Of a stretch of 64,000 nucleotides of DNA, positions 6,243 to 59,563 are shown piece by piece (the first letter of the stretch is position 1; every line of letters begins with the position of its first letter). The notes beneath the pieces were generated by a model that did no database searches, was not told the origin of the DNA, and was given only the letters and a program-made list of their open reading frames with translations. Origin of the DNA: Bryobacterales bacterium (GTDB lineage Bacteria; Acidobacteriota; Terriglobia; Bryobacterales; UBA6623); assembly GCA_965222095.1 (NCBI GenBank), contig CBDCTD010000001.1, forward strand, positions 471,390 to 535,389, read 5' to 3'. Both the position numbers and the translations under genes were made by a program.

Positions 6243-6284
6243 GGTTTGGGGAGAATCGCGAACGTCGGACCTCTGGGGCGAGGA

Positions 6285-6404
6285 GCCTGCGGTGAAAGTC
6301 CTTCATTGCAAAAAATGGTACAGTCACCGATTTTCGTCCTCTAGGCCGTACTGGAAACAAAGCAGTTGCAGAAGCGAAAATCGGATGACAGTCCCTATTT
6401 TTGC
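6285..6404. repeat. palindromic intergenic element, copy A (PAL family)
   Basis: Left arm is GCAAAAAATGGTACAGTCACCGATTTTCG and right arm is CGAAAATCGGATGACAGTCCCTATTTTTGC; they are imperfect inverted repeats around a ~38-nt centre. Shares the GGTGAAAGT lead-in with copy D. Confidence 0.8.
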
Positions 6405-6535
6405 CGAACGTAGCTTCTACTACGGGCTGCTAGGAGTTTGCTAGCGCAGACAACCCTGGCTGTGGAACTCGACCCGCAAGTCCCGAACGGATTCATTCCG
6501 CTAGCGGCTGGCCGCCCCCTCAATCCGATGATCCC

Positions 6536-7351
6536 ATGAAGGGCGACCCCGATTCGACTCACCAGGCCCCCTCACTGGTCGATTTCCGCAACGTAACCGT
6601 CATCCGTAACGGGAACAAAGCTCTCGACTCGATTACGCTGTCCATTCCCCTCGGGCAGCACGTTGCCATCCTCGGCCCCAATGGGTCGGGCAAGTCGTCG
6701 CTGATCAAAACCATCACCCGCGAGTGCCATCCGCTCGAGACATCCGACGATTCTCGGCTTACGGTCCTCGGCAAGAGGCAGTGGAACATCTTTGAACTTC
6801 GTCCGCAGCTGGGGATCGTCTCACCGGACTGGACGAAGGTTTGCGACCGCGACATTTCAGCCCGGGAAGCGATTCTTACCGGCTTTTTCGGCAGCGCTGA
6901 GATGTGGCCGAATCTTCGGGCGACCGCTGAAATGGAGAGCAAGACGGAGCAGGTACTCGGGCGGTTGGAAATCGCTCATCTCTCGAAACGCCGGGTGTCC
7001 GAGATGTCTTCCGGGGAGGCCCGCCGCGTTCTCATCGCCCGAGGGTTAGTCCATGACCCACGGGCGCTGATCCTCGACGAGCCCGCCACAAGCCTAGACC
7101 TGAGGGCGAGACGCGAACTACGAGAAACTCTGCGGAAGATCGCCCGGTCCGGCACCGGCGTTATTCTCGTCACTCATGACCCGGCAGATATCTTCCCGGA
7201 GATCAACCGAGTCGTTCTGCTGAAAGACGGGAGGGTCCTCGAAGACGGCCGCAAAGAAGATATCCTCGCGTCCGCTCATCTATCGAGATTGTTTGGCATA
7301 CCGGTCGAGCTCGTGGAGAGAAACGGATACTATCACTTGATCGACAGCTAA
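6536..7351 (+). CDS. ABC transporter ATP-binding protein (no permease gene adjacent)
   Basis: Walker A GPNGSGKSS, ABC signature SSGEARR and Walker B LILDEP are present. Confidence 0.85.
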   Translation: MKGDPDSTHQAPSLVDFRNVTVIRNGNKALDSITLSIPLGQHVAILGPNGSGKSSLIKTITRECHPLETSDDSRLTVLGKRQWNIFELRPQLGIVSPDWTKVCDRDISAREAILTGFFGSAEMWPNLRATAEMESKTEQVLGRLEIAHLSKRRVSEMSSGEARRVLIARGLVHDPRALILDEPATSLDLRARRELRETLRKIARSGTGVILVTHDPADIFPEINRVVLLKDGRVLEDGRKEDILASAHLSRLFGIPVELVERNGYYHLIDS

Positions 7352-7485
7352 CGCGCTTCGCTGTCTTCATCCAGAGACAAAAACGGAGCGGCAAGGATGT
7401 TTGCGTTTGCCGCCGGATCTGGTAGAGTGTTAGGCCTTGCGGGTAGCAAGATAGCAACAGCAATACAGACAGGAGAGGGAGAAAC

Positions 7486-8139
7486 ATGAGCGCAAGAATT
7501 TTCGTCGCAGAGTTGATTGGAACGTTTTCTTTGGTCCTTATTGGTCCGGGGTCAGCAGCGATTGGCGGCAGTTTGATAGCGGTAGCTTTTGCACACGGCC
7601 TGATCGTATTGAGTTTCGCCTATGCTTACGGCTACATCTCGGGAACCCACATCAATCCGGCTGTAAGCATCGGCTTGTGGGTCGGCCGGCAGATCAGTTT
7701 CGGGACCATGGCGGGTTATATCGTCGCCCAGGTCATCGGCGGGATACTGGGGGGGTGCACACTGTTGTTTTTGCTCAGTGGCATGGACAGCGCGAGCGGG
7801 TTGGGGGCGACCGTCCCGGCTGCGGGCGTATCCGACGGACAGGCATTCCTGCTCGAGGTGTTATTAACGTTCCTGCTCGTCAACGTCATCTTCCACACGG
7901 CGGTGAGCGGGAAAGGCGGGAACCTGGCGCCGGTTGCTATCGGCCTTACGCTCGTAGCCTGCATCTGCATGGGAGGCCCCCTGACAGGGGCTTCGTTGAA
8001 TCCTGCCCGCACGCTCGGCCCGGCTCTTTTCAGCAGCCTCCCAACCGCGATGTCGAGCCTCTGGATCTATTGCCTCGCGTGTCCGTTAGGAGGCATCCTG
8101 GCGGCCCTGGTATACGGTTTTTTGCGGGACAAGGAATAA
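7486..8139 (+). CDS. MIP-family channel (aquaporin/glycerol facilitator type)
   Basis: Six hydrophobic segments and two NPA boxes (HINPAVS and SLNPART). Confidence 0.9.
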   Translation: MSARIFVAELIGTFSLVLIGPGSAAIGGSLIAVAFAHGLIVLSFAYAYGYISGTHINPAVSIGLWVGRQISFGTMAGYIVAQVIGGILGGCTLLFLLSGMDSASGLGATVPAAGVSDGQAFLLEVLLTFLLVNVIFHTAVSGKGGNLAPVAIGLTLVACICMGGPLTGASLNPARTLGPALFSSLPTAMSSLWIYCLACPLGGILAALVYGFLRDKE

Positions 8140-8161
8140 CCGCTAAGAGCGACATAAGAAC

Positions 8162-8187
8162 TGCGGCCTGGGTATAGCCAGGCCGCA
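8162..8187. terminator. GC-rich hairpin between convergent genes
   Basis: TGCGGCCTGG (8162-8171) pairs with CCAGGCCGCA (8178-8187) around a 6-nt loop. It lies between the aquaporin stop (8139) and the truA stop (8229). No clear U-tract. Confidence 0.45.
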
Positions 8188-8228
8188 TGACGCGAGCAGG
8201 CGCGTCGCGCGTGTTAGGTTCAGCCTAC

Positions 8229-8978
8229 TCACGTCGCGGCCGGGAACTCCACCTCTACCAGAAACAGCCCCCTCGCAGGCACGGTTGGTCCCGCCTGGGA
8301 ACGTTGTTTCGCCGCCAAGATGCGGTCGATGTCATCGGCTGCTAAGTTGCCGCGTCCCACTTCCAACAGTGTGCCGACGATGTTACGCACCATGCGATAG
8401 AGAAAACCGTTGCCGCGGACGCGATAGGTCAGAAGTTCGCCGTTCTTTTCCAGCACCGACAGAAAGATCGTCCGGACGGTCGACTCTTTCTCTTCTCCAC
8501 TGGCGGCCGCTAGTGAGCGGAAGTCGCGGGTCCCGGCAAACGCGTCTGCTGCTTCCGCCATCGCCTCTTCGTTAAGCGGGTAGGGATGGTGGTAGACGTA
8601 TCGGCTCGAAAATGGCGGACAAACCTCCCCGCGCAGGATTCGATACTCATATGTTTTCGAGACTGCGCGCCGCCGGGGGTGAAAATCCGCGTCAACTTCC
8701 TCAGCCTCGAGCACGCGAATCGCATCCGGAAGCAAACGGTTCATCGCCTTGCGCAGATTATCGGCTGGGATCGCATTTTTGAAGTGGAACGACGCGACCT
8801 GCCCGAGCGCGTGAACACCGGCGTCTGTTCTTCCCGAACCGTGGACCTCGACTGTGGCGCCCTCGATCTCGGCAAGCACCTGCTGAAGCGCTCCCTGGAT
8901 CGTGGCCTGATTGGGTTGCACCTGCCAGCCGCGGAAATCTGTGCCGTCGTAGGCAAGCTTGATTCGGATGTTTCGCAC
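8229..8978 (-). CDS. truA: tRNA pseudouridine(38-40) synthase
   Basis: The N-terminus IKLAYDGTDFRGWQVQ and the catalytic GSGRTDAGVHA motif are characteristic of TruA. Confidence 0.9.
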   Translation of the reverse strand: MRNIRIKLAYDGTDFRGWQVQPNQATIQGALQQVLAEIEGATVEVHGSGRTDAGVHALGQVASFHFKNAIPADNLRKAMNRLLPDAIRVLEAEEVDADFHPRRRAVSKTYEYRILRGEVCPPFSSRYVYHHPYPLNEEAMAEAADAFAGTRDFRSLAAASGEEKESTVRTIFLSVLEKNGELLTYRVRGNGFLYRMVRNIVGTLLEVGRGNLAADDIDRILAAKQRSQAGPTVPARGLFLVEVEFPAAT

Positions 8979-9301
8979 GCGGATCCGGCGCCCTTAACGC
9001 TGTGCCGTTCTCTCGCCCCGTCCTATGCCCAATCGGCCATTGCCCAACTGGCTTGCCGCTCGTTGCCAACCCGAGCCAGTTTCAAACGTCTTACCTACTT
9101 GAAGGGCTCAAACCGCGATTGTTGACCGGTTTAAGGCAATGCTAGGATAACAAAAGACTTCCGCCACTAATGCCCGCACATCGCTGGCGGGACTTCCACC
9201 GACCACCTACCGCAATTTATTGCATGGGGAACCGAAGGTACGGGCGAGTCGTATGTGTCGGCGACTTTCCGGCTTCGGTGCCGCTACCTGGAGAACTGAA
9301 A

Positions 9302-11251: not shown

Positions 11252-11382
11252 GGAAACCGCAGGAAAGCACGGCCTGTCGGCCCAGAATCTCCAAGGTCCA
11301 CCCGGCTTCTGATAGGAGGCGTATCGACACAACTGGGCGGGCACTGTGGCCCGCGCCTACGCGCCCCTCGCGACAAGTCCTG

Positions 11383-13080
11383 CTAGACCTCGCCCTTCCT
11401 CGCCTCCTCCAAGAGATAATCCGATAGCCGCCAGGAGAGAGCCTTTATAGCCAGGGTCGGGTTCTTGTCGGGGTTGCTCACGAACGCGGCGCCATCGGCG
11501 ACGAAGAGGTTTTTCACATCGTGAGCCTGGCTGTATTTGTTGACGACCGAGGTTCGCGGGTCGTCTCCCATGCGCGCCCCGCCGACCTCGTGAATGATCG
11601 ACCCCGGCGCGTTGATCTTCGCCCCTCCCCCGGGATGGTCTTCCCTGAGGTTGATTTCCCCTCCGAGTACGTGAATGATCTCCTGGAAGGTCTCCAGCAT
11701 GTGCTGGGCCATCTTGAGTTCCGGCTCAGCCCACTTCCAATGAAAGCGAAGGACAGGGATGCCCCAACGGTCGACCTTCTCGGGGTCGATGTCGCAGTAG
11801 CAGTCGTCGTTGGGAATCATCTCGCCTCGACCCGCGAAGCCGATTTGCGCCCCATAGTGCCGGCGTAGCTCTTGTTTGAGTCGCGGTCCGTAGCCCTCCA
11901 CTTCATCGGCCTTCCCACGAAACGTCCCGGTAACAGGCATGCCGGGCCCACCCCCAAATTCAATGTGGTAGCCGCGAGGAAAATCGGGCTTCCGATCCTT
12001 CTCGTAGAGCCACCACGGGCAATAGAGGTGCAGTCCACTCACTCCATCGTGGTTGTGCGATTTCAATCCTTCCATATAAGGGAAATGCGCGCCAACGTGA
12101 ACCCCGACGGTGTCGGTGAGGTAGCGCCCGAGGACGCCGCTCGAGTTAGCCAGCCCGTTGGGATGGCGGGGCGACTTCGAGTTGAGCAAAAGCCTGACCG
12201 ACTCACAAGAGCTCGCACCAAGGATGAACGTCTTGGCGCGGATCTGCTTCTCCGTGCGCGTCGTCTTGTCGACGTAGGAAACCGCGACAAGCTTGCCCTC
12301 CTGGTCCGTCACCAACTCGCGAGCCATGGCGTTGGTAAGAAGCGTCACATTACCGGTCGCTAGCGCCGGAAAAACCAACACCTGACTGGCGGAAAAGTTC
12401 GACGCGGTGACGCAACCCCGCCCGCATTGACCGCAATAATGACACTCCGGACGTCCGTTGAGAGGACGCGTCAGGACAGCCCTTCGACCGGGAATGCAGG
12501 GAATGCGAAGAGTGTCGCACGCTCGCTTGACAAGATGGTCCACACACCGCGGCTCCGGAGGCGGCAAAAAGATGCCGTCGGGCGCGGTGGGGATGCCCTC
12601 CTTCGTCCCGTAGATGCCGACGAGTCGCTCGACCCTATCGTAGTAGGGAGCAATATCGTCGTAGGTGATGGGCCAGTCGTCGCCGTAGCCGTCGATGCTG
12701 CGACCGCGGAAGTCGTAGTCGGCGAATCGCAGTGAGATGCGGCCGTAGTGGTTCGTCCGCCCGCCGACGATGCGGGACCGAAACCACTGAAACTCGGGCG
12801 ATCCCTCGGCCGTGGTATACGGCTCGTCGTCTCTCCAGCGGAATTGGTTGGGCGCCGCAAAGCGTCCGCGCCTTTCCCGAAAACCGAGTCCGCGGTGTTC
12901 GACCTCATAGGGCCAAAGGTGCTCGAGAAAATCCTTCGACGGATCGACGGGCGGTCCAGCTTCGAGCAAAGCAACCTTGGCTCCGCCCTCGGCCAGGACC
13001 TTGGCCGCCATCCCGCCGGCCGCACCCGAGCCGATGATGGCGACGTCGTAAACTTTCGGACTGCGAATGATTTGAAGCAT
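11383..13080 (-). CDS. GMC-family FAD-dependent oxidoreductase (paralog 1)
   Basis: FAD-binding fingerprint YDVAIIGSGAAGGMAAKVLAEGGAKVALLEAG. Shares long identical blocks with the 13895-15595 product. Start taken at Met 13080; the listed ORF extends to 13110. Confidence 0.85.
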   Translation of the reverse strand: MLQIIRSPKVYDVAIIGSGAAGGMAAKVLAEGGAKVALLEAGPPVDPSKDFLEHLWPYEVEHRGLGFRERRGRFAAPNQFRWRDDEPYTTAEGSPEFQWFRSRIVGGRTNHYGRISLRFADYDFRGRSIDGYGDDWPITYDDIAPYYDRVERLVGIYGTKEGIPTAPDGIFLPPPEPRCVDHLVKRACDTLRIPCIPGRRAVLTRPLNGRPECHYCGQCGRGCVTASNFSASQVLVFPALATGNVTLLTNAMARELVTDQEGKLVAVSYVDKTTRTEKQIRAKTFILGASSCESVRLLLNSKSPRHPNGLANSSGVLGRYLTDTVGVHVGAHFPYMEGLKSHNHDGVSGLHLYCPWWLYEKDRKPDFPRGYHIEFGGGPGMPVTGTFRGKADEVEGYGPRLKQELRRHYGAQIGFAGRGEMIPNDDCYCDIDPEKVDRWGIPVLRFHWKWAEPELKMAQHMLETFQEIIHVLGGEINLREDHPGGGAKINAPGSIIHEVGGARMGDDPRTSVVNKYSQAHDVKNLFVADGAAFVSNPDKNPTLAIKALSWRLSDYLLEEARKGEV

Positions 13081-13164
13081 AGAAAGCCTTAGGACTAGTG
13101 GGCACGGCATGCCGTGCCCCTACGCGTGCTCACCGGGGCGGCACGTCAACTGCCGGCTACACGG

Positions 13165-13262
13165 TAGCCAAAAAATCGGGACAGTCACCGATTTTCGCTG
13201 TCTACTCCAGATTGAAGGCAAGGTAGCTGCAAAGGCGAAAATCGTTGACTGTCCCCATTTTT
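13165..13262. repeat. palindromic intergenic element, copy B (PAL family)
   Basis: CCAAAAAATCGGGACAGTCACCGATTTTCGC ... GCGAAAATCGTTGACTGTCCCCATTTTT. It sits between the Tat-subunit gene and GMC paralog 1. Confidence 0.8.
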
Positions 13263-13263
13263 C

Positions 13264-13893
13264 TTACACCGGCGCCCGATCCAACAACTGTTTCACCACA
13301 TCCTCGCCGCAGCCGTGGTACTCGCTGAGGGCGTCGTTGCCGCCGTAGCCGACGTCTTCGATACCCTCTTTGCTCGTATAGAAAGCGTCTACGGTCCACT
13401 CCCGCATCAGTGAAAAGAACTCGATGCCCGGTCCCAGGTTCGGAGACTCATTCTTGCGATAGGCAATCAGATCGAGCATCTGCTGCTGCTCGCCTTTCGT
13501 CGCCTCGATGAACGACTTCCCGACGCGCCGGCGCATCTGGTTGTCTAACCAGCCCAATCCACCGCTGAAAGCGAGCTGCAGCTTTTCCTTCGCGCCGGCC
13601 ATCAAGTCGATCAGCTCGGCTGTCCCTCCAGCGATACCTCCCTGTGACTTTTCGTCGGGTGGGATGATCCAGTCCGAGAGCACCTGCAGGGTTTTGAACT
13701 CGTGCTCGTTGAAGTATTTTCGCTTGTAAGGTCCGGTGGGCTTCGGTTCACCTTGGGCCTTGTGCCGGTGCTCATGCGGAGGAGCCTGCTGGGCCAGGGC
13801 CGAAGCGGGCACGAATCCGGCGCCCGCGGCCGTCAAGCCGGTCCTCTTGAGCATCTCGCGCCGGGAAAGTTGGTTCTTCTTCCGGTCAGCCAT
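13264..13893 (-). CDS. gluconate 2-dehydrogenase subunit 3-family protein with Tat signal
   Basis: Twin-arginine leader SRREMLKRTGLTAAGAGF. The rest resembles the small subunits that partner GMC dehydrogenases (...FKTLQVLSDWIIPPDEKSQGG...). Confidence 0.75.
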   Translation of the reverse strand: MADRKKNQLSRREMLKRTGLTAAGAGFVPASALAQQAPPHEHRHKAQGEPKPTGPYKRKYFNEHEFKTLQVLSDWIIPPDEKSQGGIAGGTAELIDLMAGAKEKLQLAFSGGLGWLDNQMRRRVGKSFIEATKGEQQQMLDLIAYRKNESPNLGPGIEFFSLMREWTVDAFYTSKEGIEDVGYGGNDALSEYHGCGEDVVKQLLDRAPV

Positions 13894-13894
13894 G

Positions 13895-15595
13895 TTAGAC
13901 GTTTCCTTTCTTGGCTTCGTCGAGCAGGTAATCCGCCATGCGCCATGAGAGCGCGGTAATGGTCAGCGTCGGGTTCTTGTCCGGATTCGTAGTGAACACC
14001 CCACCGTCAGCCACGAAGACGTTCTTCACGTCGTGGGCCTGGCTGTAGCGATTCACAACCGACGTCTTGGGGTCGTTTCCCATACGTGTCGTCCCGACTT
14101 CGTGGATAACACCCCCCGGGGCGTCAATCTCGGGTCCGTGCAGGCCGTCTCCCTCCCGCACCACGACGTCGCCTCCCAGGAGGTCGATCATCTCCCGGAA
14201 GGTCTGCTTCATATGCTCCGCCATCTTGAGTTCCGGTTCCGCCCATTTCCAATGGAAGCGAAGCACGGGAATGCCCCAGTGATCGACCACCTCGGGATCA
14301 ATGTTACAGTAGCAATTGTCGTTCGGAATCATCTCGCCCCGACCGGTAAGAGTAAACTCGGAGCCGTAGTATTGGCGCAAGTGTTGCTTTAGGTCTAAGC
14401 CATATCCCTCTGTGTTATTGAGAGTTCGATCGAAGTCACCTGCCCCCGGCATTTTCGGCCCGCCCCACCACTCAATGTGGTAACCGCGGGGGAAGTTGGG
14501 CTTACGGTCGTTCTCATAGAGCCACCAGGGGCAGTACATATGCGCGCCGCCAGCCCCGTCATTGTTGTGTGGCTTGAGCCCTTCGAGGGAAGGAACGTGG
14601 ACCCGGAAGTGGACCGCCACCGAATCAGTGAGATTGCGCCCGACAGCATTGCTGGAGTTAGCCAGTCCGTTGGGGAAGCGGGTGGATTTCGAGTTGAGCA
14701 ACAGCCGGGCCGACTCGCAGGAGCTGGCGCCCAGCACGAACGTCTTGCCCCGGATCTGCCGCTCGCTGCGATCCGTCTTGTCCACGTAGGAGACGGCAAC
14801 GACCTTGCCTTCTCGGTCGGTGACCAACTCGCGAGCCATCGCGTTTGTAAGCAGGGTTAGGTTGCCGGTCTCGAGCGCAGGGAAAACGAGAACTTGGCTC
14901 GCCGAAAAGTTGGATGCGGAGACGCAGCCGCGTCCGCACTGGCCGCAGTAGTGGCAGGCAGGGCGCCCATTAAGCGGACGAGTCAGAACGGCTCGCCGAC
15001 CCGCAATACAGGGGATCTTGACTTTGTCACAAACTCTTTTGACCAGATGGTCGAGGCACTTCGGCTCGGGAGGAGGCTGGAAAATGCCGTCCGGGGCGCT
15101 GCGGATCCCCTCTTTCGATCCGTAGACGCCGATCAGACGCTCGGCCTTGTCGTAATAGGGCGCCAGGTCTTCGTACGTGATGGGCCAATCGTCGCCGTAG
15201 CCGTCGAGGCTTCGCCCGCGAAAATCGTAGTCGGCGAATCGGAGCGAGATTCGACCGTAGTGGTTCGTGCGTCCACCGACAATGCGCGAACGAGACCAGG
15301 AGAATTCCGGAGATCCCGGAGCGTTGGTGTAGGGTTCCTTGTCGCTCCAGCGGAATCTGTTTGGGGCGCCGAACCCTGCTCGGCCGCCCGGCAGACCGAG
15401 CCCGCGGTGTTTGACCTCGTAGGGCCAAACGTGCTCCAGATAGTCTTTGGAAGGGTCAAGCGGGGGACCGGCCTCGAGCAGAGCGACTTTCGCGCCGGCA
15501 TCGCAAAGAACCTTGGCCGCCATGCCGCCGGCCGCGCCCGAGCCGATTACAACGACATCGTAGACTTCTCTGCTGCCGATGACTTGAGACATCAC
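13895..15595 (-). CDS. GMC-family FAD-dependent oxidoreductase (paralog 2)
   Basis: YDVVVIGSGAAGGMAAKVLCDAGAKVALLEAG. Collinear with paralog 1 along its full length. Confidence 0.85.
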   Translation of the reverse strand: MMSQVIGSREVYDVVVIGSGAAGGMAAKVLCDAGAKVALLEAGPPLDPSKDYLEHVWPYEVKHRGLGLPGGRAGFGAPNRFRWSDKEPYTNAPGSPEFSWSRSRIVGGRTNHYGRISLRFADYDFRGRSLDGYGDDWPITYEDLAPYYDKAERLIGVYGSKEGIRSAPDGIFQPPPEPKCLDHLVKRVCDKVKIPCIAGRRAVLTRPLNGRPACHYCGQCGRGCVSASNFSASQVLVFPALETGNLTLLTNAMARELVTDREGKVVAVSYVDKTDRSERQIRGKTFVLGASSCESARLLLNSKSTRFPNGLANSSNAVGRNLTDSVAVHFRVHVPSLEGLKPHNNDGAGGAHMYCPWWLYENDRKPNFPRGYHIEWWGGPKMPGAGDFDRTLNNTEGYGLDLKQHLRQYYGSEFTLTGRGEMIPNDNCYCNIDPEVVDHWGIPVLRFHWKWAEPELKMAEHMKQTFREMIDLLGGDVVVREGDGLHGPEIDAPGGVIHEVGTTRMGNDPKTSVVNRYSQAHDVKNVFVADGGVFTTNPDKNPTLTITALSWRMADYLLDEAKKGNV

Positions 15596-15632
15596 CTATT
15601 GGGGGGCAGACGCAGAAGGCTGTCGGCGCTTA

Positions 15633-15669
15633 GCGCGCATTTCTCACCACCTGACTGTCGAAGTACGCG
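15633..15669 (-). promoter_or_regulatory. conserved upstream motif, copy 1 (UP motif)
   Basis: GCGCGCATTTCTCACCACCTGACTGTCGAAGTACGCG, 38 nt upstream of the GMC paralog 2 start. Near-identical to 43867-43903. Confidence 0.5.
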
Positions 15670-15873
15670 TCAAATAGGACAAGCGATCCCGGGAGGCGCA
15701 CCCAGGCTAGAGCTGTTGGGCAGGCCCTGTGTCTTCAACAGCATTGTCCTGCGCCCCTGCGGGGCTTGTTCGCTTGTGCATACCGAACCCACGGTTTCGC
15801 CTAGCGGCTCCACCGTGGGCTACTATCCTACGCCCCCTGCGGGGGCTGAAGCACACCAAGTGACGAGTAGGGG

Positions 15874-16656
15874 CTAGCCGGCCACTTGGTTTTTCAGGAT
15901 CCCGATGCCGTCAACCTCAACCTCGACCTCGTCACCGGGCTTCATCGGGCTCGTCGTGCCGGGAGTTCCGGAATAGATCACGTCACCGGGGGTTAGCGTC
16001 ACGTAGTGGCTGATAAAGCTCACCAGTTCCCGAGGGCCGAAGATGAGGTCGCTCGCGAATTGTGACTGCTTGACCTCGCCGTTGAGGCGCAACTGAATCC
16101 GCGACTTCTCGTAATCGAGGCCGCTGGCGATGGCAGGACCGAGGGGCCCAAACGTGTCGCTGCCCTTGGCGCGCCACCATTGTAGGTCTTGGGTGTCCCC
16201 CAGCGAGCCGAGCTGCCAGTTTCGATCGCTGACGTCGTTGCCGCAGGTGTAGCCGAAGATATGGTCATCCGCGTCATCCACGGAGATGCCCTTCGCCGTC
16301 TTCCCGACCACGACTACGAGTTCAGCCTCGTAATGAACATCCCGGGCTCCGGTTGGGAAAACAATATCGTCGCCCGGATCGGTTAGGGCCGTGGGCGGCT
16401 TGTAGAAGATTTCCGGATTCGTCGGCGCCGGATGATCTCCCAGGTGACTGCGATAGTTGAGCCCGACGCAGAGCACTTTGGAAGGCTCGCACGGGTAGCG
16501 CAACTTGACGTCGTCGAGTGGCACGGTTTTTCCGGTCGGGGTCCGCTCTCCGAATAGCCCACCATCGATTTCCTTGATCGTCTCGCCATCAAGAATGCCG
16601 TAGGAAACACGCCCGTCGTGTCCATAGCGGACATAACGGGTTACCGAATCGCTCAT
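15874..16656 (-). CDS. fumarylacetoacetate hydrolase (FAH) family protein
   Basis: The FAH-fold C-terminal domain pattern is present (...VLCVGLNYRSHLG..., ...YEAELVVVVGK..., ...GDVIYSGTPGTTSPMKPGDEVEV...). Confidence 0.8.
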   Translation of the reverse strand: MSDSVTRYVRYGHDGRVSYGILDGETIKEIDGGLFGERTPTGKTVPLDDVKLRYPCEPSKVLCVGLNYRSHLGDHPAPTNPEIFYKPPTALTDPGDDIVFPTGARDVHYEAELVVVVGKTAKGISVDDADDHIFGYTCGNDVSDRNWQLGSLGDTQDLQWWRAKGSDTFGPLGPAIASGLDYEKSRIQLRLNGEVKQSQFASDLIFGPRELVSFISHYVTLTPGDVIYSGTPGTTSPMKPGDEVEVEVDGIGILKNQVAG

Positions 16657-16913
16657 GAACGTGAACCTCCCGGCCGACTGTGCGGCACGATGAAAGATTA
16701 CCTAAACCCCGGCGGGAAACGGTCCCGAGGATTCGACTAGTCTAGCAAAGTGCTTTCGGAGGGGCGTCTAGGCGCACGTTGTGCGCGTTGCGTGGTCGGC
16801 AACGAGAGGTAAGCCATCTTGCGGCGCGCGCATTCGTGCGTGCCGCGCCGCCATCCGTGGCGACGTCAGGCGGCGCCGAACCGGGTTCAAGAGCCCCAGC
16901 GTCTGACCAGCTC

Positions 16914-17768
16914 TTAGCCCTTGACGCCGTTTCGCAGCACCCCGATGCCGTCGATTTCGACCTCGACCACGTCGCCGGCTTTGATGCGACTCGTCTTCCC
17001 GGGCGTGCCCGTATAGATCACATCCCCGGGACCCAAGGTTATGTGTTGGCTGATAAAGCTCACAACAGCGGGTGGCTTGAAAATCAAGTCCGAGAGCATT
17101 TGCTTCTGCTTGACTTCTCCGTTGAGCCGCAACTGCATCTGAGACTTCTCGTAGTCCAGACCGACGGCTATAGCCGGGCCCATGGGCGCGAAAGTGTCGC
17201 TACCTTTAGCCCGCCACCACTGTACGTCCTTCTGGTCGCCGAGCGAGCCGTTCTGCCAGTTGCGCTCGCTGATGTCGTTGCCACAGGTGTAACCAAGAAT
17301 ATGGTCGGCGGCCTGGTCTTCGGGCACGCGCCGGGCCCTCTTGCCGATCACAATCACGAACTCCGCCTCGAAGTGAACATCTTGCGCTCCGGGGGGAAAC
17401 ACGATATTCGCCTCCGGGCTCAGCAGCGCCGTGTTCGCCTTGAAAAAGGGCTCCGGGTTCTTCGGTGCGGGCTGGTCCCCCAGGTGGCTCTGGTAGTTTC
17501 CCGCCAGCGCCAAAACTTTGCGCGGGCGGATGGGATAAAGCAACTTGACCTCCCCGAGGGGGATGGTAGTCCCCGTTTCCGCCCGGCTGCCGAAAAGGTT
17601 GCCTTCAATTTGGCGAACGGTCTCGCCGTCCAGTATCCCAAACGACGTCTTGCGTTGATGCCGGTATCGAACTAACCGAGTTACCCCACTACGCTTCGAT
17701 GGTGCGCAGGTGAGGCTCGCCGCACCGGTGGCTAGGGCCGTGAAGAACGCTCTGCGGGATGATCGCAT
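16914..17768 (-). CDS. FAH-family protein with twin-arginine signal peptide
   Basis: Paralog of 15874-16656, preceded by MRSSRRAFFTALATGAASLTCAPS (an SRRxFF Tat motif). Confidence 0.75.
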   Translation of the reverse strand: MRSSRRAFFTALATGAASLTCAPSKRSGVTRLVRYRHQRKTSFGILDGETVRQIEGNLFGSRAETGTTIPLGEVKLLYPIRPRKVLALAGNYQSHLGDQPAPKNPEPFFKANTALLSPEANIVFPPGAQDVHFEAEFVIVIGKRARRVPEDQAADHILGYTCGNDISERNWQNGSLGDQKDVQWWRAKGSDTFAPMGPAIAVGLDYEKSQMQLRLNGEVKQKQMLSDLIFKPPAVVSFISQHITLGPGDVIYTGTPGKTSRIKAGDVVEVEIDGIGVLRNGVKG

Positions 17769-17871
17769 GATCTCCCTCCTTTTTAGGAATCTGGGCCAGT
17801 CTACCAGAATTCATTGGAGGACCGGGTTGACGAGGGGCTCGGGCTTGTTGCGAAGTGAGAAACTAGGTTCG

Positions 17872-17975
17872 GCAAAAATAGGGACATTTCATCAGCCGGG
17901 AAAAGACACTCTTGCAGCCATCAAAGCGAGTGTAGCAGCGCGAATGCAGCGTCACTCGTACCGGATAGAACTGTC
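17872..17975. repeat. degenerate PAL-family copy C
   Basis: GGCAAAAATAGGGACATTTCATC matches the reverse complement of the copy A right arm (CGGCAAAAATAGGGAC). The partner arm is eroded (..AACTGTCAGAC..). Confidence 0.3.
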
Positions 17976-18082
17976 AGACTTGCCCCGCGCCCCTCAGTCT
18001 TCTGCTACCTTTCTTGCAAGCACCAACTCGATCAACTGCTTCACGCATCGACGCTCGATGTGCCGTGAGGGTCTGATCCGAA

Positions 18083-18562
18083 ATGAAGGGTATACACACT
18101 TCACCCGAAAAACTCGCTCCCGTCTTGTGGTTGCTCCTGGTCGCTTTTGTTGGCCGCGTGCTCGGGCAAGCACTCGTCGCTCTCGCACAGGTTCCTTGGC
18201 TGCCGCCGATGGATGCCTGGATGTCGGGCCTGTTGGCGTACCCTTATCTACTGGTCTCGCAGATCGTCATCATGGCAGCCTGCGTCAAGGTGTGCGTGGA
18301 TTTTTCGCGGGGACGGGGCTGGACGGTGCGGCCTCGTCGTTTTATGGCGCGAGGCGCGCTTTACTTCGGATATCTCTACTTCGCCGGGATGATTCTACGC
18401 TACGTCCTGCAAATGATCCTACTCCCGGAAACGCGCTGGCTGGGAGGAACGATACCGATCTTCTTCCACCTGGTCCTAGCGACTTTTCTTATTCTCGTGA
18501 GTTTGTGGCACCGAGCGCAGTTAGAAACGACCGAGACCGCCGGCTCAGCCTCCAGAAAATGA
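18083..18562 (+). CDS. hypothetical membrane protein
   Basis: 159-aa ORF with about 4 hydrophobic helices. No family recognised. Confidence 0.45.
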   Translation: MKGIHTSPEKLAPVLWLLLVAFVGRVLGQALVALAQVPWLPPMDAWMSGLLAYPYLLVSQIVIMAACVKVCVDFSRGRGWTVRPRRFMARGALYFGYLYFAGMILRYVLQMILLPETRWLGGTIPIFFHLVLATFLILVSLWHRAQLETTETAGSASRK

Positions 18563-18661
18563 GAACCCCTCGATCACGATCGGCCCGCAGTACGGGCTGC
18601 ATCTACTGGTTGTCACTTACGATGGGTTCTCCTAGAATGAAGCAGCCTTCGGGAGAAGAAG

Positions 18662-19100
18662 ATGCAACAACACGTCAAGATCCTGGGTGTCATACACATC
18701 GTAATGGGCAGCCTCGCTGTATTGATGGGCTTGGTGGCTATGATAGTTTTTCTTTTGGGCGGAGCGCTCGTAGGGGCCGCCGCGGCGCATGATCCAGAGG
18801 CGGCTTGCCGCACCCCTGCTGGGATTCATCGGTGGCGTCTTGTTCTTCCTGATAGCAGTATTGGCGGTTCCCGGAATCATCGCCGGGGTCGGACTGTTAA
18901 AGTATCGCCCTTGGGCGCGCATCCTGACCATCGTCCTCTCGGCGCTCCAACTCTTCAGCGTGCCGATAGGAACCGCTGTGGGAATCTATGGCCTCTGGAC
19001 CATGCTTAACAATGAAACAGAACAGCTGTTCACCACGTCAGGCACAGCTTTCGCTACACCCGCCACCCAAAACCCTCCGGGCCGGCCACCCACCAGCTAG
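18662..19100 (+). pseudogene. small 4-TM membrane protein split by a frameshift (or two overlapping ORFs)
   Basis: The 18662 ORF starts MQQHVKILGVIHIVMGSLAVLMGLVAMIVFLLGG...AAAHDPEAA, then loses hydrophobic character. The 18789 ORF in another frame continues with LAAPLLGFIGGVLFFLIAVLAVPGIIAGVGLLKYRPWARILTIVLSALQLF. Confidence 0.4.
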
Positions 19101-19102
19101 CA

Positions 19103-19222
19103 GCCCGCGGTGAAAGTAAAGCTCGCGAAAATCGGGTACAGCCAGCCAATTCGCCTCAGGCCAAGCGCTTTGTTTCGAGGGTCAAGACGGGAGGCGAATA
19201 GGTGGCAGTCACCGTTTTTCGC
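19103..19222. repeat. palindromic intergenic element, copy D (PAL family, divergent)
   Basis: GGTGAAAGT lead-in, then GCGAAAATCGGGTACAGCCAGCCAATTCGCC ... GGCGAATAGGTGGCAGTCACCGTTTTTCGC. Confidence 0.65.
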
Positions 19223-19385
19223 TCCTCACGCAGCGCACGCTGAGATCCGTAAGCTGTCGGTCGACGCGCCCTTATCGGCCAAACCTCCTCCCCACAATGA
19301 GAATATGGATTTCCCCTCCTCAAAAAGGTCTTCCCTCCCCGAAAGTGATTCTAAGTAGTGTGCCCTAGCGCTTCCTTGATGGTTT

Positions 19386-22300: not shown

Positions 22301-22502
22301 CCCCAACGAGTTCGTCACCGTCCATATCGAGGTCACCGGCGACTCGATCGTTCAGCGAGCGCAACAAAACGGGCAGTCGGTTCTTCTCGACGAGTGGAAG
22401 CACTCCGGCGCCGGATTTACTCGAGGCCGCTTCGGCTTCCACGTCCCGGGCCGAGATCAAATCGCCCTGCGGGAGATAAGTTTCATCCCCCGAAGCGGCT
22501 AA
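19386..22502 (+). CDS. large bitopic protein: cytoplasmic helical/TPR-like region, one TM, PEGA-like repeats, C-terminal jelly-roll-like domain
   Basis: 1038-aa ORF; a more likely start is Met 19473 (MSFYSQYEL). The single TM is WLLPVLVSLLATLTVIAVTL. Repeated about 70-aa units resemble PEGA domains (VKADPPDAAISIDSEMCGTSTCRVELEQGKYRADAELLGYD...). Family assignments are from memory only. Confidence 0.6.
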   Translation: MLFFKPMGLLNDLVADVMITLGSQIETIPMSFYSQYELVRLVCQARTKTFEAKQLASNRLVYLHLFDDDPAVRDSLLEKIGFLVTNPPASGPLPILDVVQSAESPYAVTEILDPFTNLEDWVEAQYHKIDEADKSQWREQIDSRLWAGDQEGALEVARDALIEHPEDNDLRKAEQVLDRLCRGRQLCAEGNEEEGLELLSQAHRIDEQNQHVRNVLTTCLIDAAEKLIDLHWEAGDKRVEEALQIDPNHERAQRLRERIGHKREEFICWCLTQAHRLQSQGDRAGAIVVVEQGLASYPQEQRLLELKASLQRKAEPSPSKPTSKTLGKVHSLRGYLEKLKDKLQAKLRKLAPKLSKLAAYLRDRLAPLVPLHLQARQRWLLPVLVSLLATLTVIAVTLRIWGTDSEPPPEVAVAPPPVFSVIVKADPPDAAISIDSEMCGTSTCRVELEQGKYRADAELLGYDTATRFFDVDEQSSGQQDPIVLSLTPQAPTLQLSSDLACGEVSLDGELLGELEDGQLEAELNSLESGEHILAVSGDGSRVEIRFESSSGSAVKILSPLDTRNLKAILVSGLGREARLHSSETVKDARLNGEPLEEVGAEGAALNNLWKGEHELTLGTGRRERTVLFDRGERPYLAAFLRSHRPLGALRISTGEDGTSVFLNGKRYRRETRNGRLFIYLHPKQYKVRVEKEGFVAPAERVVDIRKDEQVRLNFSMVQRPQAASLRVSGGPPGTEVLLDGQRLGRISPNGTFATSAIGLGGHEIILRHDRYLAKVVARDFAAGTTVEIDGALERGPGTLRINIIPPDLNVALTLRRDGETAARAISDKTLSLSPGTYTVGGKAAGYRDYAATARLDAGQSKTLSLIMELDQSKRRQEPVSALEEWGKGRGWMREGPLLVRRGGKFVLAPIKPGPGTYSFTAIVKKGRRLEWVVNYRDEGNYLLYQLGKNFFHRIEVREGQRSSPVRLRHDLHPNEFVTVHIEVTGDSIVQRAQQNGQSVLLDEWKHSGAGFTRGRFGFHVPGRDQIALREISFIPRSG

Positions 22503-22514
22503 GTCACGCTACGC

Positions 22515-23636
22515 TAGTGCTTACTATCATAAATTAGCGTATGAATGAGAAAGGGGTCGCTGCTGGACGTTAGCCTTGGTCCATTCGAACGGGGCGGCGT
22601 TTTTGTTGTGCGCTTGGACGAAGCGGTCGATGGCCTGGCGTACTTCGTAAGGGGAGGTGAAACTGGCCCCGCGCAACGCTCTACGGCTGAGAATACTGAA
22701 CCAGATCTCGACCTGGTTGAGCCAGGAGGCGTAGGTGGGCGTGTAGTGCAGGTGCACCTTGCGGTGGCGTTTGAGCCAGCGATCACGTTTCGGTTTGTGG
22801 GTGTTGAGGTTGTCCAGTACGACGTGCAACTCAAAACCTTGGTAGAGATCGACCAGTTGATTCATGAAGTCAAGAAACTCACGCCGTCTGCGGCGCCGGT
22901 AATGCCCGGCCGTGACGTGGCCGGTGGCGACCTCCAGGGCCGCGAACAAGGTCGTTGTGCCGTGGCGCTTGTAGCCGTGCGAGAAACCCGTCAAAGCCTT
23001 GCCGTCGGGCAGTCTGAGCCAACCCTGGGCGCGCTCCAGGGCCTGGATGTTGGGCTTCTCGTCGACCGCCAGCACGATGGCGTTGTCAGGCGGGTGCAGA
23101 TAGAGTCCCACGATGTTGGCGGCTTTACGCGAGAATTCGGGATCGGTGGAGAGGCACCAACTACGCCGCCGGCACAACGAGATGCCGCGCCGACGCAACA
23201 CGCGCCAGACCTGTTGGTCGCTGACATCGCCCAGCGCCGCGGCCAGCCGTGGAGCCGTCCAGGTCGCCTGTCCGCAAGGCGGCGTGTCGTCCAGCTTTTG
23301 CAGAATGCGTTTTTCGGTGTCAGCGTCGTATCGCCGCGGCTTGCCGGGTCGCGTTTCATCCGCCAGACCGGCCAGTCGTTGGCCAGCGAAGCGCGTACGC
23401 CACTTCGACACTCGTGCGGCCCGCGTGCCCAACTGGGCGGCGATCTCCCGGTTCGACATCCCTTGCGCCGCCAACAAAATGATCCGGGCTCTGTCCGCCG
23501 CACGGCGCTCGCTCTTGTGCGCGCGTCCCCAGCCCTCCAACGTCCGGCGTTCCCCAGTACTGAGTCTGATACGCGTGGCTATTCTTGCCATGCCGCATTG
23601 TCTCATACATACGGTTATTTATGATAGTAAGCACTA
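22515..23636 (-). mobile_element. IS630-family insertion sequence with TA target duplication
   Basis: TIRs are GTGCTTACTATCATAAAT at 22517 and its reverse complement ending at 23634 (18 of 18 identical, about 30 of 33 when extended). TA flanks both sides (22515-16, 23635-36), and the reconstructed target reads CTAG. Confidence 0.9.
22527..23606 (-). CDS. IS630-family DDE transposase
   Basis: N-terminal HTH region (LSTGERRTLEGW..., MSNREIAAQLG...) and a DDE_3-like core (AVDEKPNIQALER..., LHVVLDNLNTHKPK..., ASWLNQVEIWF). The likely start is Met 23591. Confidence 0.9.
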   Translation of the reverse strand: MRQCGMARIATRIRLSTGERRTLEGWGRAHKSERRAADRARIILLAAQGMSNREIAAQLGTRAARVSKWRTRFAGQRLAGLADETRPGKPRRYDADTEKRILQKLDDTPPCGQATWTAPRLAAALGDVSDQQVWRVLRRRGISLCRRRSWCLSTDPEFSRKAANIVGLYLHPPDNAIVLAVDEKPNIQALERAQGWLRLPDGKALTGFSHGYKRHGTTTLFAALEVATGHVTAGHYRRRRRREFLDFMNQLVDLYQGFELHVVLDNLNTHKPKRDRWLKRHRKVHLHYTPTYASWLNQVEIWFSILSRRALRGASFTSPYEVRQAIDRFVQAHNKNAAPFEWTKANVQQRPLSHSYANL

Positions 23637-23643
23637 GATGCCT

Positions 23644-23753
23644 GGGTGTGTGAAAAAACCCTGGGTACAGTCCCTGCGCCTCTCGCAAGTCATTGATAAA
23701 GCGCCCCGTCCTTGCATGGCGCTTGGGACAGTCCCGGGTTTTTTCACACACCC
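23644..23753. repeat. palindromic intergenic element, copy F (PAL family)
   Basis: GGGTGTGTGAAAAAACCC (23644-23661) has a perfect inverted copy at 23736-23753. Inner GGGTACAGTCCC / GGGACAGTCCC cores are present. Confidence 0.85.
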
Positions 23754-24021
23754 TTCTGCTAGTGGCGGACACATCGCGACGGGCGAATCAGAGCTGCGAC
23801 CGCGAGGATCGGCGAAAAACCCCTGTGTTCAGGAACGAAAAGGAATGAGAATGTTTGAATCGGCGCTGAGCGGGATCGCGTGGCAAGGGAGCAGAAACCG
23901 GTTACATCGATGTGAATCGCGATCAGCTGTAGCGGAGGGCCGTGAACCTGGAAGAGCCGATGGAGCACACGGCGCGGTTGATTTGGGCGCTGCTGGGGAG
24001 GCTTCGGCCTCCGCGGCCCAG

Positions 24022-25386
24022 TTAGGGACCCGGTGCGGAGGCGCGCTCTTCGATGAGGCGCTCGATGAAGTGGGTGTCGTAGTTGCCGAGGGAAAAGTCG
24101 GAATCAGCCATGATGCGGCGGTGCAGGGGGATCGAGGTGTGGATGCCCTCGACGAGGAAGAAGTCGAGCGCCCGCTGCATGCGAGTAATGGCCTCGGTAC
24201 GGTCCCGGCCGTGGCTGATAAGCTTGGCGATCAGCGAGTCGTAGTAGGGCGGTACGAACCAACCCGGGTAGGCCGCGGTGTCAACGCGGATCCCAATGCC
24301 ACCTGGCATTAGTAGATTCGAGATGCGTCCGGCCGAGGGCGCAAAGGTCTCGGGGTTTTCGGCGTTGATGCGGCATTCAATGGCGTGGCCGCGAATGTCG
24401 ATCTTTTCGGGAACAACCGAGGACAGATGCTCACCGTCAGCGAGGAGAATCTGGCTCTTCACCAAGTCGACGCCGGTGATTTGTTCCGTGACGGGATGTT
24501 CGACTTGGATGCGCGCGTTGAGCTCGATGAAGTGGAGATCGCCACTGCCGTCCATTAGAAACTCGACGGTTCCTGCGTTCGAGTATCCGACCTTGGACAA
24601 TGCTTGGGCGATCTGGGTACCGAGACGATCGCGTGTTTCCTGGTCGAGACGAGGAGAGGGCGCTTCTTCGAGCAGTTTTTGGTGCCGGCGCTGGACAGAG
24701 CACTCTCGTTCGCCGAGCGTGATCACTCGACCATGGTTGTCGCCCAGCACCTGAAACTCGATGTGACGGGGCCGGTCAATGAACTTCTCAAGGTAGACTT
24801 CGGAGGACTGAAAGCTGACGGCGGCCTCATGTTGCGCCTGGTGGAAAAGCTCGGGCAGTTGACGGGAGTTGTGGACGACCCTCATCCCCCGGCCGCCACC
24901 GCCGGCAGCGGCCTTTATCATTACTGGAAAGCCAATGTCATTGGCCCACCGGTGGGCGTCTTCGACTGATTCCAGCGGTTCGTCGGTTCCCGGCAGGACG
25001 GGTAGTCCCGCTTCTTTCACCGCGCGGCGTGCTTGGGCCTTATCGCCCATCAGCCGAATCTGTTCCGGTTTCGGCCCGACGAAGGTGATGCCCGAAACCT
25101 CGCAGACCTCGGCGAAACTGGCGTCTTCGGCGAGGAAGCCGTAGCCGGGGTGAATGGCATCGACATCGGTGATCTCGGCGGCGCTGATCATCCGTGACAC
25201 ATTCAGGTAGCTCTCGGTGCTGCGCGGTGGACCGATGCAGAGGGCCTCGTCGGCATAGCGCACATGCAGCGAGCCGCGGTCGGCTTCCGAGTACACGGCT
25301 ACCGTGCGGATCCCGAGATCCTTGCACGCTGCGATGACGCGGAGGGCGATTTCACCCCGGTTGGCGATCAAGAGTTTCCTGAACAT
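24022..25386 (-). CDS. accC: acetyl-CoA carboxylase, biotin carboxylase subunit
   Basis: [26 protein letters not shown]... and the ATP-grasp core are highly characteristic. Start taken at Met 25386; the listed ORF extends to 25434. Confidence 0.95.
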
Positions 25387-25407
25387 AGGAGCCTGAGGCT
25401 TTATGGG

Positions 25408-25508
25408 GCTGTGAAAAAATCGGGGACAGCCCACTTCGCGCCGATTTTAGCCATTGATTCCAAGAAGCTTATGCGGGTGGCGCTCGGTACAGCCCCCATT
25501 TTTTCACC
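25408..25508. repeat. palindromic intergenic element, copy E (PAL family)
   Basis: GTGAAAAAATCGGGGACAGCCCACTTCGCGCC ... GGCGCTCGGTACAGCCCCCATTTTTTCACC. It occupies most of the accB-accC spacer. Confidence 0.8.
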
Positions 25509-25512
25509 GTCC

Positions 25513-26040
25513 TTACGCGTTGGGCTTAAGAGCGAAAAGCGCGGCGCCGTAATCGACCGGCTGGGCGTTAGAGACGAATCGTTTGACGACCACGCCGCCG
25601 GTTTCAGCTTCAATCTCGTTCATCAGTTTCATGGCCTCGATGATGCAGAGCACCTGGCCGGTTTCGACTTTGTCGCCCACTTCGACGAACGGGGGTGCGT
25701 CGGGAGACGACGCCTCGTAAAAAGTCCCCACGATGGGGGCCGTTACCATGACCAAATCCTCCTCCTTGTCCGCGGACTCGTCGGTGGACGGCGCCGGGGG
25801 AGGGGTTTCTGTGGAAACAGGGTTGCTCGGCCGCGCTACGGGCGGCGGTTGAGCGGCTTCGGCAATCGAGGGAGGGGTGGCAGCCACAACTACGTAGGGC
25901 GGCGAGTTGGGGTTGTCTGACGGTCCGCTGCGCGGAAAACGGCGGATGCGCAGCTTCTCGTCTCCCTTTTCGAATTCGAGCTCGGCTATGTCCTTTTCGA
26001 TGGCGGTGTCGATCAGGGCTTTGATCTGTCTTAGGTTCAT
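25513..26040 (-). CDS. accB: acetyl-CoA carboxylase biotin carboxyl carrier protein
   Basis: Pro/Ala-rich linker and the biotinylation motif CIIEAMKLMNEIEAE. Confidence 0.9.
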   Translation of the reverse strand: MNLRQIKALIDTAIEKDIAELEFEKGDEKLRIRRFPRSGPSDNPNSPPYVVVAATPPSIAEAAQPPPVARPSNPVSTETPPPAPSTDESADKEEDLVMVTAPIVGTFYEASSPDAPPFVEVGDKVETGQVLCIIEAMKLMNEIEAETGGVVVKRFVSNAQPVDYGAALFALKPNA

Positions 26041-36109: not shown

Positions 36110-36215
36110 GTCAGCCGTCCCGTCTGTCGGGTAAATGGGTTAGTGAGGCGAGAGTTCGATCTTGCCAGGGCGAGCAGAAGGTGGTGGTGGTTCAGACCAG
36201 CGGGATTGCAGGACC

Positions 36216-36410
36216 CTAGGCCGCATTTCTCACCAGGGGTCGGGAGGGGTGGAAGCAAATGCTCGCCATCAGAGATGTAGGGGCGCGATTCATCGCGCCC
36301 GCTTGCGGACGGACTGTACGTTGGGCGGTGTGCGCGAAGTGTTGCCGCGCGCCAAGGCCGCCGGGCCTTTCGCCTCGTCCACCGCGGTCGTGGTGAGAAA
36401 TGCGGGCTAG
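36216..36410. repeat. 195-bp unit bounded by inverted UP-motif cores, with internal REP-like palindrome
   Basis: CTAGGCCGCATTTCTCACCA (36216-36235) is inverted as TGGTGAGAAATGCGGGCTAG (36391-36410). The internal palindrome is GGGCGCGATTCATCGCGCCC (36281-36300). Confidence 0.7.
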
Positions 36411-59562: not shown

Positions 59563-59563
59563 G

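Follow-up and report, generated by a model that had tools for sequence, protein, structure and literature searches.

Palindromic intergenic repeats of Bryobacterales as probable nested, non-autonomous transposable elements with IS5-like and IS630-like ends

The repeats known as REPIN or BIME, which are associated with REP-associated tyrosine transposases (RAYT), are intergenic doublets of about 100 bp in which short palindromes form a long hairpin, and they display strand asymmetry. The MITEs (miniature inverted-repeat transposable elements) of the IS5 family and the 'Tourist' MITEs of the PIF/Harbinger group are small, non-coding elements with terminal inverted repeats and 3-bp duplications of a short palindromic target; such duplications are commonly seen in some branches of the IS5 family and in the PIF/Harbinger elements related to it, with Tourist MITEs duplicating TWA and IS5 of E. 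coli making 4-bp duplications. MITEs of the IS630/Tc1 type, including the Correia elements of Neisseria, RUP and Nezha, form hairpins of 100-170 bp at TA or CTAG target sites, and those of the Correia type have possible side effects as terminators or in RNA processing. IS1397 and ISKpn1, full-length members of the IS3 family, insert into the loops of REP palindromic units. Here, we describe a set of palindromic intergenic elements, designated copies A to F, in a 64-kb stretch of DNA from a Bryobacterales bacterium (contig CBDCTD010000001.1), referred to as the window, and compare them with these systems.

We consider it likely that these elements are MITEs of Bryobacterales, i.e. non-autonomous transposable elements that are moved in trans and nest in palindromes; the best description is that of nested palindromic MITEs with IS5-like and IS630-like ends, belonging to a known class. 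Similar to the MITEs of the IS5 and PIF/Harbinger groups, they are small (90-170 bp), near-palindromic and without coding capacity, with terminal inverted repeats and 3-bp duplications which are TNA or CNG in these elements; they differ in that no IS5-type partner was found in the sampled loci or in plasmids, and we know of no IS5 MITEs described as preferring palindrome apices or as sharing a GGGGACWGTCC module. The outer arms of two types (A and C) end in C-TA-G...C-TA-G, a feature seen in the IS630 copy of the window and in other IS630 copies of these genomes and held in common with the Correia, RUP and Nezha elements; in contrast to the latter, the IS630 likeness is found in the outer layer only, while the inner doublets, the E-type and the type-2 elements have other ends with 3-bp duplications, and the sequences are different. 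As with IS1397 and ISKpn1, a mobile element takes the tip of a recurring palindrome as its target and generates a duplication of 3-4 bp, but the inserting elements are MITEs and the target is the core of their own relatives rather than an unrelated repeat. The doublet architecture, intergenic location and strand asymmetry are shared with REPIN/BIME, and hundreds of copies per genome are likely, as in those systems; the differences are the presence of target-site duplications, the lack of a GTAG or CGTC tag in the element alignments and the finding of no RAYT beside the modules in the genes checked.

The elements of the window, together with one empty site and a neighbouring insertion sequence, are as follows:

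6280..6433, plus strand: copy A, type A/B doublet within outer arms, present in the same-strain contigs L001 and L002
6280-6299: outer left arm of copy A, degenerate, GAGGAGCCTGCGGTGAAAGT
6308-6404: module doublet of copy A, core centres 6322 and 6390, both A
6420-6433: outer right arm of copy A, CTACGGGCTGCTAG
13168..13264, plus strand: copy B, type A/B doublet lacking outer arms, in a minus-strand operon between two of its genes
16722..16733, no strand: empty site, with a type-2 element at the orthologous position in a related species (L079, about 406-517)
17858..17890, plus strand: copy F, left-end remnant of a type A element, half arm and flank
19097..19229, plus strand: copy C, type C doublet, outer left arm intact (CTAGCAGCCCGCGGTGAAAG from 19097), outer right arm decayed
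22514..23637, minus strand: insertion sequence of the IS630 family with a DDE_3 transposase and inverted repeats of 37 bp, in a CTAG 6 bp away from copy D
23645..23756, plus strand: copy D, type-2-like, with CTG at 23642-23644 and 23757-23759 (CAG on the minus strand) as 3-bp duplication
25404..25512, plus strand: copy E, E-type, accB-accC spacer, with TTA flanks at 25401-25403 and 25513-25515

The original prediction had placed five clear copies and a degenerate sixth in this region; all were confirmed by sequence, far beyond chance, and in each of the five clear copies a 35-45-nt centre is enclosed by a pair of arms, each about 30 nt long. The sixth, thought to span 17872-17975, is real but is a left-end remnant only (copy F). 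A two-arm IUPAC pattern derived from the copies matched four of the five copies and nothing in 100 dinucleotide shuffles, a half-module regular expression yielded 301 matches in about 1 Mb of related DNA vs. 0-5 in shuffles, and an nhmmer model of 254 arms placed arms at these six positions only in the 64 kb, with none between 26 and 64 kb. The hairpin potential of the copies was examined by single-strand folding against shuffles, showing a large gain for D, B and A (z-scores of -8.3, -6.0 and -3.8, respectively), a modest gain for E and C (-2.2 and -1.9) and no folding of F (-0.3).

From their outer ends inwards, the aligned arms have the sequence G-AAAAAA-T-(N)-GGG(G/T)AC-W-G(T/C)C, beyond which they diverge. 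The module common to all subfamilies of the window is G-AAAAAA-T-(N)-GGGGAC-W-GTCC, comprising a subterminal A-run followed by GGGGAC-W-GTCC, mirrored by a T-run at the opposite end. The inner arms (CACCGATTTTCG in A and B, CAGCCAATTCGCC in C and ...GCGCC in D and E) and the centres differ, defining at least three subfamilies in the window (A/B, C and D/E-like) and at least five in Bryobacterales loci (E-type, type 2, type C, type A/B and a type with GGGGACTGCCTACTCTGTCC arms); the copies, originally taken for a single family, are therefore related but distinct, partly nested subfamilies of these probable MITEs. The terminal inverted repeats are GGAAGGTGTGAAAAAAT at both ends of type 2 (22 copies) and GGGGCTGTGAAAAAAT in the E-type. 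Types A and C are usually surrounded by an outer palindrome, CTAG-CAGCCCGTGGTGAAAG...CTTTTGCCACGGGCTG-CTAG, of about 154 bp in total, and the type C centre is homologous to the type A centre in reversed orientation. The GGTGAAAGT lead-in, previously ascribed to 'A and D', is in fact carried by the copies at 6285 and 19103 (the first and third), where it forms part of this second, outer inverted repeat, CTAGCAGCCCGTGGTGAAAG...GCCACGGGCTGCTAG, bounding the full element of about 154 bp; as remnants of it, copy A retains the right arm and copy C the left arm. The arms of copy B measure 28 nt and are 93% complementary, and copy B is 74% identical to copy A over 74 nt. The inverted arms are present as predicted, but four of the five clear copies carry ACAG in both arms on the same strand, hence their arms are not strictly complementary at the core centre; copy B is the sole perfect-palindrome (A,T) copy of the window.

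To define their spread, the two-arm pattern was scanned over one genome per species, with about 3 chance matches expected in the whole collection. At least 118 matching stretches were obtained; among the matches listed, 87 were from 26 assemblies labelled Bryobacterales, Solibacteraceae or Bryobacteraceae, and the elements are present in at least 26 Bryobacterales assemblies. Among the gene products of the window, OMP_b-brl_4 and PEGA proteins pointed to Acidobacteria. A 6.8-Mb contig of a metagenome-assembled genome (MAG) of the same species (CBDFIS010000006.1) encodes an AccB protein with 99% identity to the one in the window, and copies are positioned on this contig at 0.08, 1.2, 2.4 and 4.75 Mb. 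With copies at such distant positions, the elements are not confined to the window, the outcome on which the original prediction had staked its claim beforehand. Doublets built on this module also form small families in six other phyla (Nitrospirales, Planctomycetota, Hydrogenedentota, Aminicenantes, Caldisericota and sphingomonads). The family carries no name in any resource searched, in accord with the earlier failure to recognize it: Rfam gave 0 matches at the gathering score in the 64 kb and only chance-level matches (E > 4) at a permissive threshold, PLSDB plasmids gave no match to the elements, and literature searches with the core sequence and for acidobacterial repeats returned unrelated primer matches or nothing specific. 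Among viral contigs only 2 matches were found, with no sign of a phage vector.

Evidence for mobility came from orthologous intergenic regions of relatives, where the predicted presence/absence polymorphism was found for copy D, copy E and the position at ~16727. In strains L202 and L205, which are 97-98% identical to the window, and in the sister species L206, the site of copy D is empty, reading CTAGCAG followed directly by GAATCTAG with a single CAG, while the filled site of the window reads CTAG-CAG-(112-bp element)-CAG-GCATCTAG. The IS630-family element, likewise absent from the sister strains, entered the CTAG 6 bp from copy D after D itself. For copy E, six lineages with AccB identities of 80-99% have an accB-accC spacer of about 126 bp made of this copy, vs. 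spacers of 13 bp in L213 (AccB identity 76%) and 4 bp in L214 (60%), both devoid of an element; as copy E is found in all lineages with AccB identity of at least 80% and is absent at 76% and 60%, it is one old insertion that has been vertically inherited. It is bounded by the TAA stop codon of accB (the TTA flank at 25513-25515, accB being on the minus strand) and by a second TAA, with one TAA in the empty site of L213, and a TA duplication fits these flanks equally well. The ortholog in L212 has decayed, with loss of the A-run and wide divergence, and those in L208 and L211 harbor a further type-2 element within the right core. In the L212 ortholog, the most diverged (3520-3620), both core centres are C on the same strand (GGGGACCGCGCC ... 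GGCGGACCGTCCCC), compared to T and T in the window lineage; this pair has changed together and stayed identical rather than complementary. The window has no element at ~16727, a position that lies downstream of a fumarylacetoacetase-family gene, but the L079 ortholog, with 90% identical flanks, holds a type-2 copy. At copy C, the sister strains have a different 52-bp sequence at the same CTAG. A further pair, L085/L116, was considered as an empty site and rejected, as the site holds a different insert. The original prediction had likened the elements to REP/BIME, ERIC or MITE sequences; they are indeed dispersed, palindromic and intergenic, and the target-site duplications and empty sites favour the MITE comparison, while a REP/RAYT relationship found no support.

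Copy F lies at the junction of a 1.45-kb deletion relative to L202 (window 17836-17887 vs. L202 16718-18173). Its complementarity to the right end of copy A and the adjoining flank (6391-6418) is 93%, with 15 nt of the copy A flank included in the match, and this match at a deletion junction suggests recombination between element copies. An F420-oxidoreductase-like gene, together with a MazE-like antitoxin pair, is found in the L202 segment missing from the window.

Type-2 copies are flanked by triplets of the form C-N-G, about half of them direct (CAG/CAG, CTG/CTG, CCG/CCG) and about half complementary (CAG/CTG, CCG/CGG); the flanks of E-type copies conform to T-N-A, with the same two patterns. 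We read the direct triplets as 3-bp target duplications. With respect to target choice, about 9 of the 22 type-2 copies are positioned exactly at the C-W-G centre of a GGGGAC-W-GTCCCC module, either inside type C arms (L005, L030, L057, L067), inside an E-type arm (L043, and also the orthologous copy E of L208/L211) or inside otherwise lone modules (L046, L090, L111). Since modules make up roughly 0.3% of the sampled DNA, this nesting reveals a strong preference for module centres. E-type copies are often central in other, unrelated palindromes. When the inner part of a doublet was sought by itself away from modules, its motifs proved too short and too rich in GC for a distinction.

This nesting also bears on the earlier proposal that the core is a dimer-binding site, for which we found no support; instead, it is at the core centre that other copies preferentially insert. 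With 13 bp, the core forms a palindrome that is conserved across phyla and frequently occurs in groups of two or three (L044, L077), as would be expected if it were the operator of a dimeric DNA-binding regulator or nucleoid protein (core form GGGGACWGTCCCC), with the elements serving as arrays of binding sites. However, the core is repeatedly split by insertions while the host element persists, there is no conserved neighbouring gene family, the hundreds of sites are in unrelated contexts, and they are found downstream of genes and inside operons more than in promoter regions, rendering this explanation highly improbable. Sigma-54 promoters, matS, LexA-type and other operators were considered and dropped, as sequence and spacing do not fit.

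Comparison of the element ends points to the enzymes that may move them. The 17-nt type-2 consensus end GGAAGGTGTGAAAAAAT agrees at 13 of 16 positions with both ends of E. coli IS5A, GGAAGGTGCGAA(T/C)AAG, as taken from NC_000913.3, and the likeness to the left end of IS5A extends through CGGGGA. In addition, an IS630-like element of L206 shares 13 nt (AGTGGACTGTCCT) with an E arm. We propose that DDE transposases encoded elsewhere in the genome would move the elements in trans, with type-2 and D-like copies using IS5-like ends and 3-bp CNG duplications, E-type copies giving rise to TNA (or TA) duplications, and the outer arms of types A and C acting through their C-TA-G...C-TA-G ends in the manner of the IS630 family. 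Insertion prefers palindrome centres, above all the C-W-G at the module apex, giving rise to Russian-doll nesting and local clusters, and the module may itself form part of the site bound by the transposases; once inserted, a copy is vertically inherited and slowly decays. The hairpin and its A/T runs may act as a transcript hairpin or weak terminator, presumably as a side effect and not as the reason for the family.

The transposases of the window (IS630, two IS4-like and one DDE_Tnp_1_4) were considered as partners and rejected, as their ends, including those of the DDE_Tnp_1 elements at 53.3-54.5, 55.7-57.1 and 58.2-59.6 kb, are unlike those of the palindromic elements. These three insertion sequences occupy window 53267-54458, 55686-57137 and 58244-59563. 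Two of them are IS4-like (DUF4372 and DDE_Tnp_1) in inverted orientation, one being frameshifted, with CACTACTGTCC ends, and the third is a DDE_Tnp_1_4 element which is 82-88% identical to copies in the Bryobacterales MAGs L013, L025 and L116 and is also present in L203. We noticed the short motif of the module core within the ends of different insertion sequence families, namely TAGTGGACTGTCCTAG and TAGTGTCCTGTCCG in IS630-like elements and CACTACTGTCC in IS4-like elements (L206 16740-17880; L202 1525-2680; window 54440-54458 and 58244-58258), which may be a coincidence or a hint of a shared host factor or target structure.

Several observations weigh against the reading of these elements as MITEs moved by DDE transposases. 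1) An autonomous insertion sequence with such ends was sought in about 1.6 Mb of related loci and in plasmids but not found, the search covering sequence between lone modules, between distant outer-arm motifs and between distant IS5-like ends, and tblastn with E. coli InsH found no InsH-like gene in the sampled loci; because of this, the transposase assignment is a putative one, drawn from the 16-17-nt similarity of the ends and the length of the duplication. 2) The complementary flanking triplets are not predicted by a plain 3-bp duplication; we surmise that they may reflect a later symmetrisation of the long quasi-palindrome, e.g. by template switching. 3) A simple reading as a 'transposase binding site' does not account for the finding of one and the same module in seven phyla and within elements that have three different types of ends. 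4) Among the 127 doublets of the sample (about 1 Mb of DNA, 49 assemblies), the same centre base is on the same strand (A,A or T,T) in 103 (81%), so that the long hairpin has an A·A or T·T mismatch; perfect palindromes (A,T; GGGGAC-A-G from each outside) account for 23 doublets in 18 assemblies, but the mirror form (T,A) is represented by one doublet in one assembly. 5) In doublets with the same centre base, CAG/CAG is on the locally G-rich strand in 70 of 96 (26 discordant; p = 8e-6), a count that includes some orthologous copies and is based on 8-kb tiles. These asymmetries are more typical of single-strand (HUH) transposition.

The orientation bias with respect to GC skew is in the same direction in every subfamily, the four same-centre-base copies of the window all point one way, and orientation is opposite to the gene-majority strand by 45:21. 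As the skew of coding strands is near zero in these genomes, the local skew probably reports the direction of replication, and the bias fits with replication-coupled insertion. Such insertion has been reported for the IS5-family member IS903, and it is the rule for HUH elements.

The same asymmetries are what would be expected of a REPIN- or BIME-like system, in which the modules would be REP hairpins arranged as doublets and copied as single-stranded DNA at the replication fork by a Y1 (HUH) transposase of the RAYT/TIRYT type; the architecture of doublets made of individually palindromic modules is also in keeping with this explanation. Y1 transposases make no target duplication, however, and the duplications at copies D and E, with a single triplet in the empty sites, argue against it, as does the lack of the tags mentioned above. 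RAYT-like tyrosine transposases flanked by inverted repeats, some with GGGGWSAS, have been described, an acidobacterial group included (PMC3733652), and the core of our elements, read from the outside as GGGGACAG, fits this motif. Four TIRYT proteins were rebuilt from the supplement of that paper and used to retrieve 80 metagenomic loci (341 kb). These RAYT-like loci are flanked by a different repeat, GGGTGCCCCAGGTCTCGC(N)GAGACCTGGG, with only 2 chance-level module matches in the 341 kb, and this gene group was rejected as a partner. In the Bryobacterales loci, no TIRYT counterparts were found beyond two Y1_Tnp genes (L020 and L117), which are flanked by yet another repeat. The association with a RAYT proposed for testing was thus not found in this sample of Y1_Tnp and RAYT-like genes, and the other repeats at these genes, along with the duplications at D and E, make a REP/RAYT system unlikely. 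In the retrieved loci (L122-L201), the RAYT-like genes are those of Terriglobia-type Acidobacteria and are flanked, often in tandem, by the hairpin repeat GGGTGCCCCA(G/T)GTCTCGC(N4-5)GAGAC(C/A)TGGG, a separate and apparently abundant repeat system. The Y1_Tnp genes at L020 4700-5420 and L117 1-720 are IS200-like, and their flanks consist of inverted CCTAGGGTGGAGCCGGAACGGCGGAACCCTAGG copies and GCCCCTGCGGGGC hairpins, unrelated to the module.

It is possible, if doubtful, that the module is a structure-forming 'landing pad and passport' of several unrelated MITE lineages in at least seven phyla, extruded at the replication fork into a hairpin or cruciform and recognized as a structure. The apex insertions, the same-strand centre base, the near-absence of (T,A) doublets and the GC-skew bias would then be signs of a replication-coupled, strand-specific transposition not yet described for these elements.

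Returning to the elements as probable MITEs, the gene calls place every copy of the window between genes: copy A between a DUF6503-like gene and an ABC ATPase gene; copy B inside a GMC-oxidoreductase/gluconate-dehydrogenase operon, ending 1 nt before the stop codon (13264-13266) of the gene at 13264-13893; copy C upstream of a PEGA-domain gene; copy D between the convergent ends of the PEGA-domain gene and accC; and copy E between accB and accC. The claim that the copies are strictly intergenic thus holds for called genes, with E abutting the accB stop codon and B ending 1 nt from a stop codon. In the sampled DNA, the element centre is inside a stop-to-stop open reading frame in 26% of cases vs. 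75% for random positions. Public assemblies call a 50-residue protein wholly inside copy A (L002 8807-8959, equivalent to window 6292-6444) and a 68-residue protein inside the nested E element (L211 3543-3749); these small proteins are annotation artefacts.

The context of the copies bears on another explanation, namely that they are structural signals selected by the host, such as bidirectional terminators, mRNA-stabilising hairpins or a small RNA, with repetition reflecting function and not mobility. The module, with its A-run, GC-rich stem and T-run, has the shape of a bidirectional terminator, and in C and D the hairpins of the module were flagged by a simple scan; convergent neighbouring genes (31 cases) outnumber divergent ones (15) by two to one, with co-directional neighbours in a further 50; copy E has persisted in the accB-accC spacer from a time before lineages 80% identical in AccB diverged; and the type C centres are 82-99% identical across species. 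On the other hand, strains with 97-98% identity differ in the presence of copies, the number of terminator-like sites in the region does not exceed that in shuffles (21 vs. a shuffle mean of 20.4), the centres are wholly different among subfamilies and Rfam gave no match. The ortholog of E in L212 has lost its A-run, and those in L208/L211 persist despite being split by another element. Moreover, copies lie inside operons upstream of essential genes (E before accC) or within the dehydrogenase operon (B), where strong termination is unlikely. Taken together, we regard host selection as an improbable origin for the family, even if copy E may possibly attenuate transcription between accB and accC.

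Additional repeats were noticed in the same region. Two GMC oxidoreductase genes (window 11383-15595), with 71-81% identical DNA and 2512 bp apart, form a tandem duplication around a gluconate-dehydrogenase subunit-3 gene, and copy B lies inside this duplication; two fumarylacetoacetase-family genes (15874-17768) are also in tandem, 1040 bp apart. Another short repeat family, TAGCCCGCATTTCTCACCACCTGAC..., is present at 15622-15669, 36208-36235 and 43856-43903, with two copies 92% identical over 39 nt, and the sister strain L202 lacks a 250-bp segment (15625-15876) that includes the first of these copies. In their motif CCCGCATTTC, the repeats are similar to the end of the DDE_Tnp_1_4 insertion sequence (55686-57137), of which they may be solo ends or MITEs.

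An abundant class of repeats is described here for the first time in Bryobacterales, soil Acidobacteria that are dominant yet for the most part uncultured. In practical terms, the repeats break assemblies, yield spurious small open reading frames and mark sites of deletion and of insertion sequence entry, while the nesting series (module, type 2 inside the module, further decay) and the dated accB-accC insertion constitute a useful marker of strains and lineages. The family lends itself to studies of how palindromic targets are selected by transposases, and the strand bias, if confirmed on complete chromosomes, would tie a MITE family to the replication fork.

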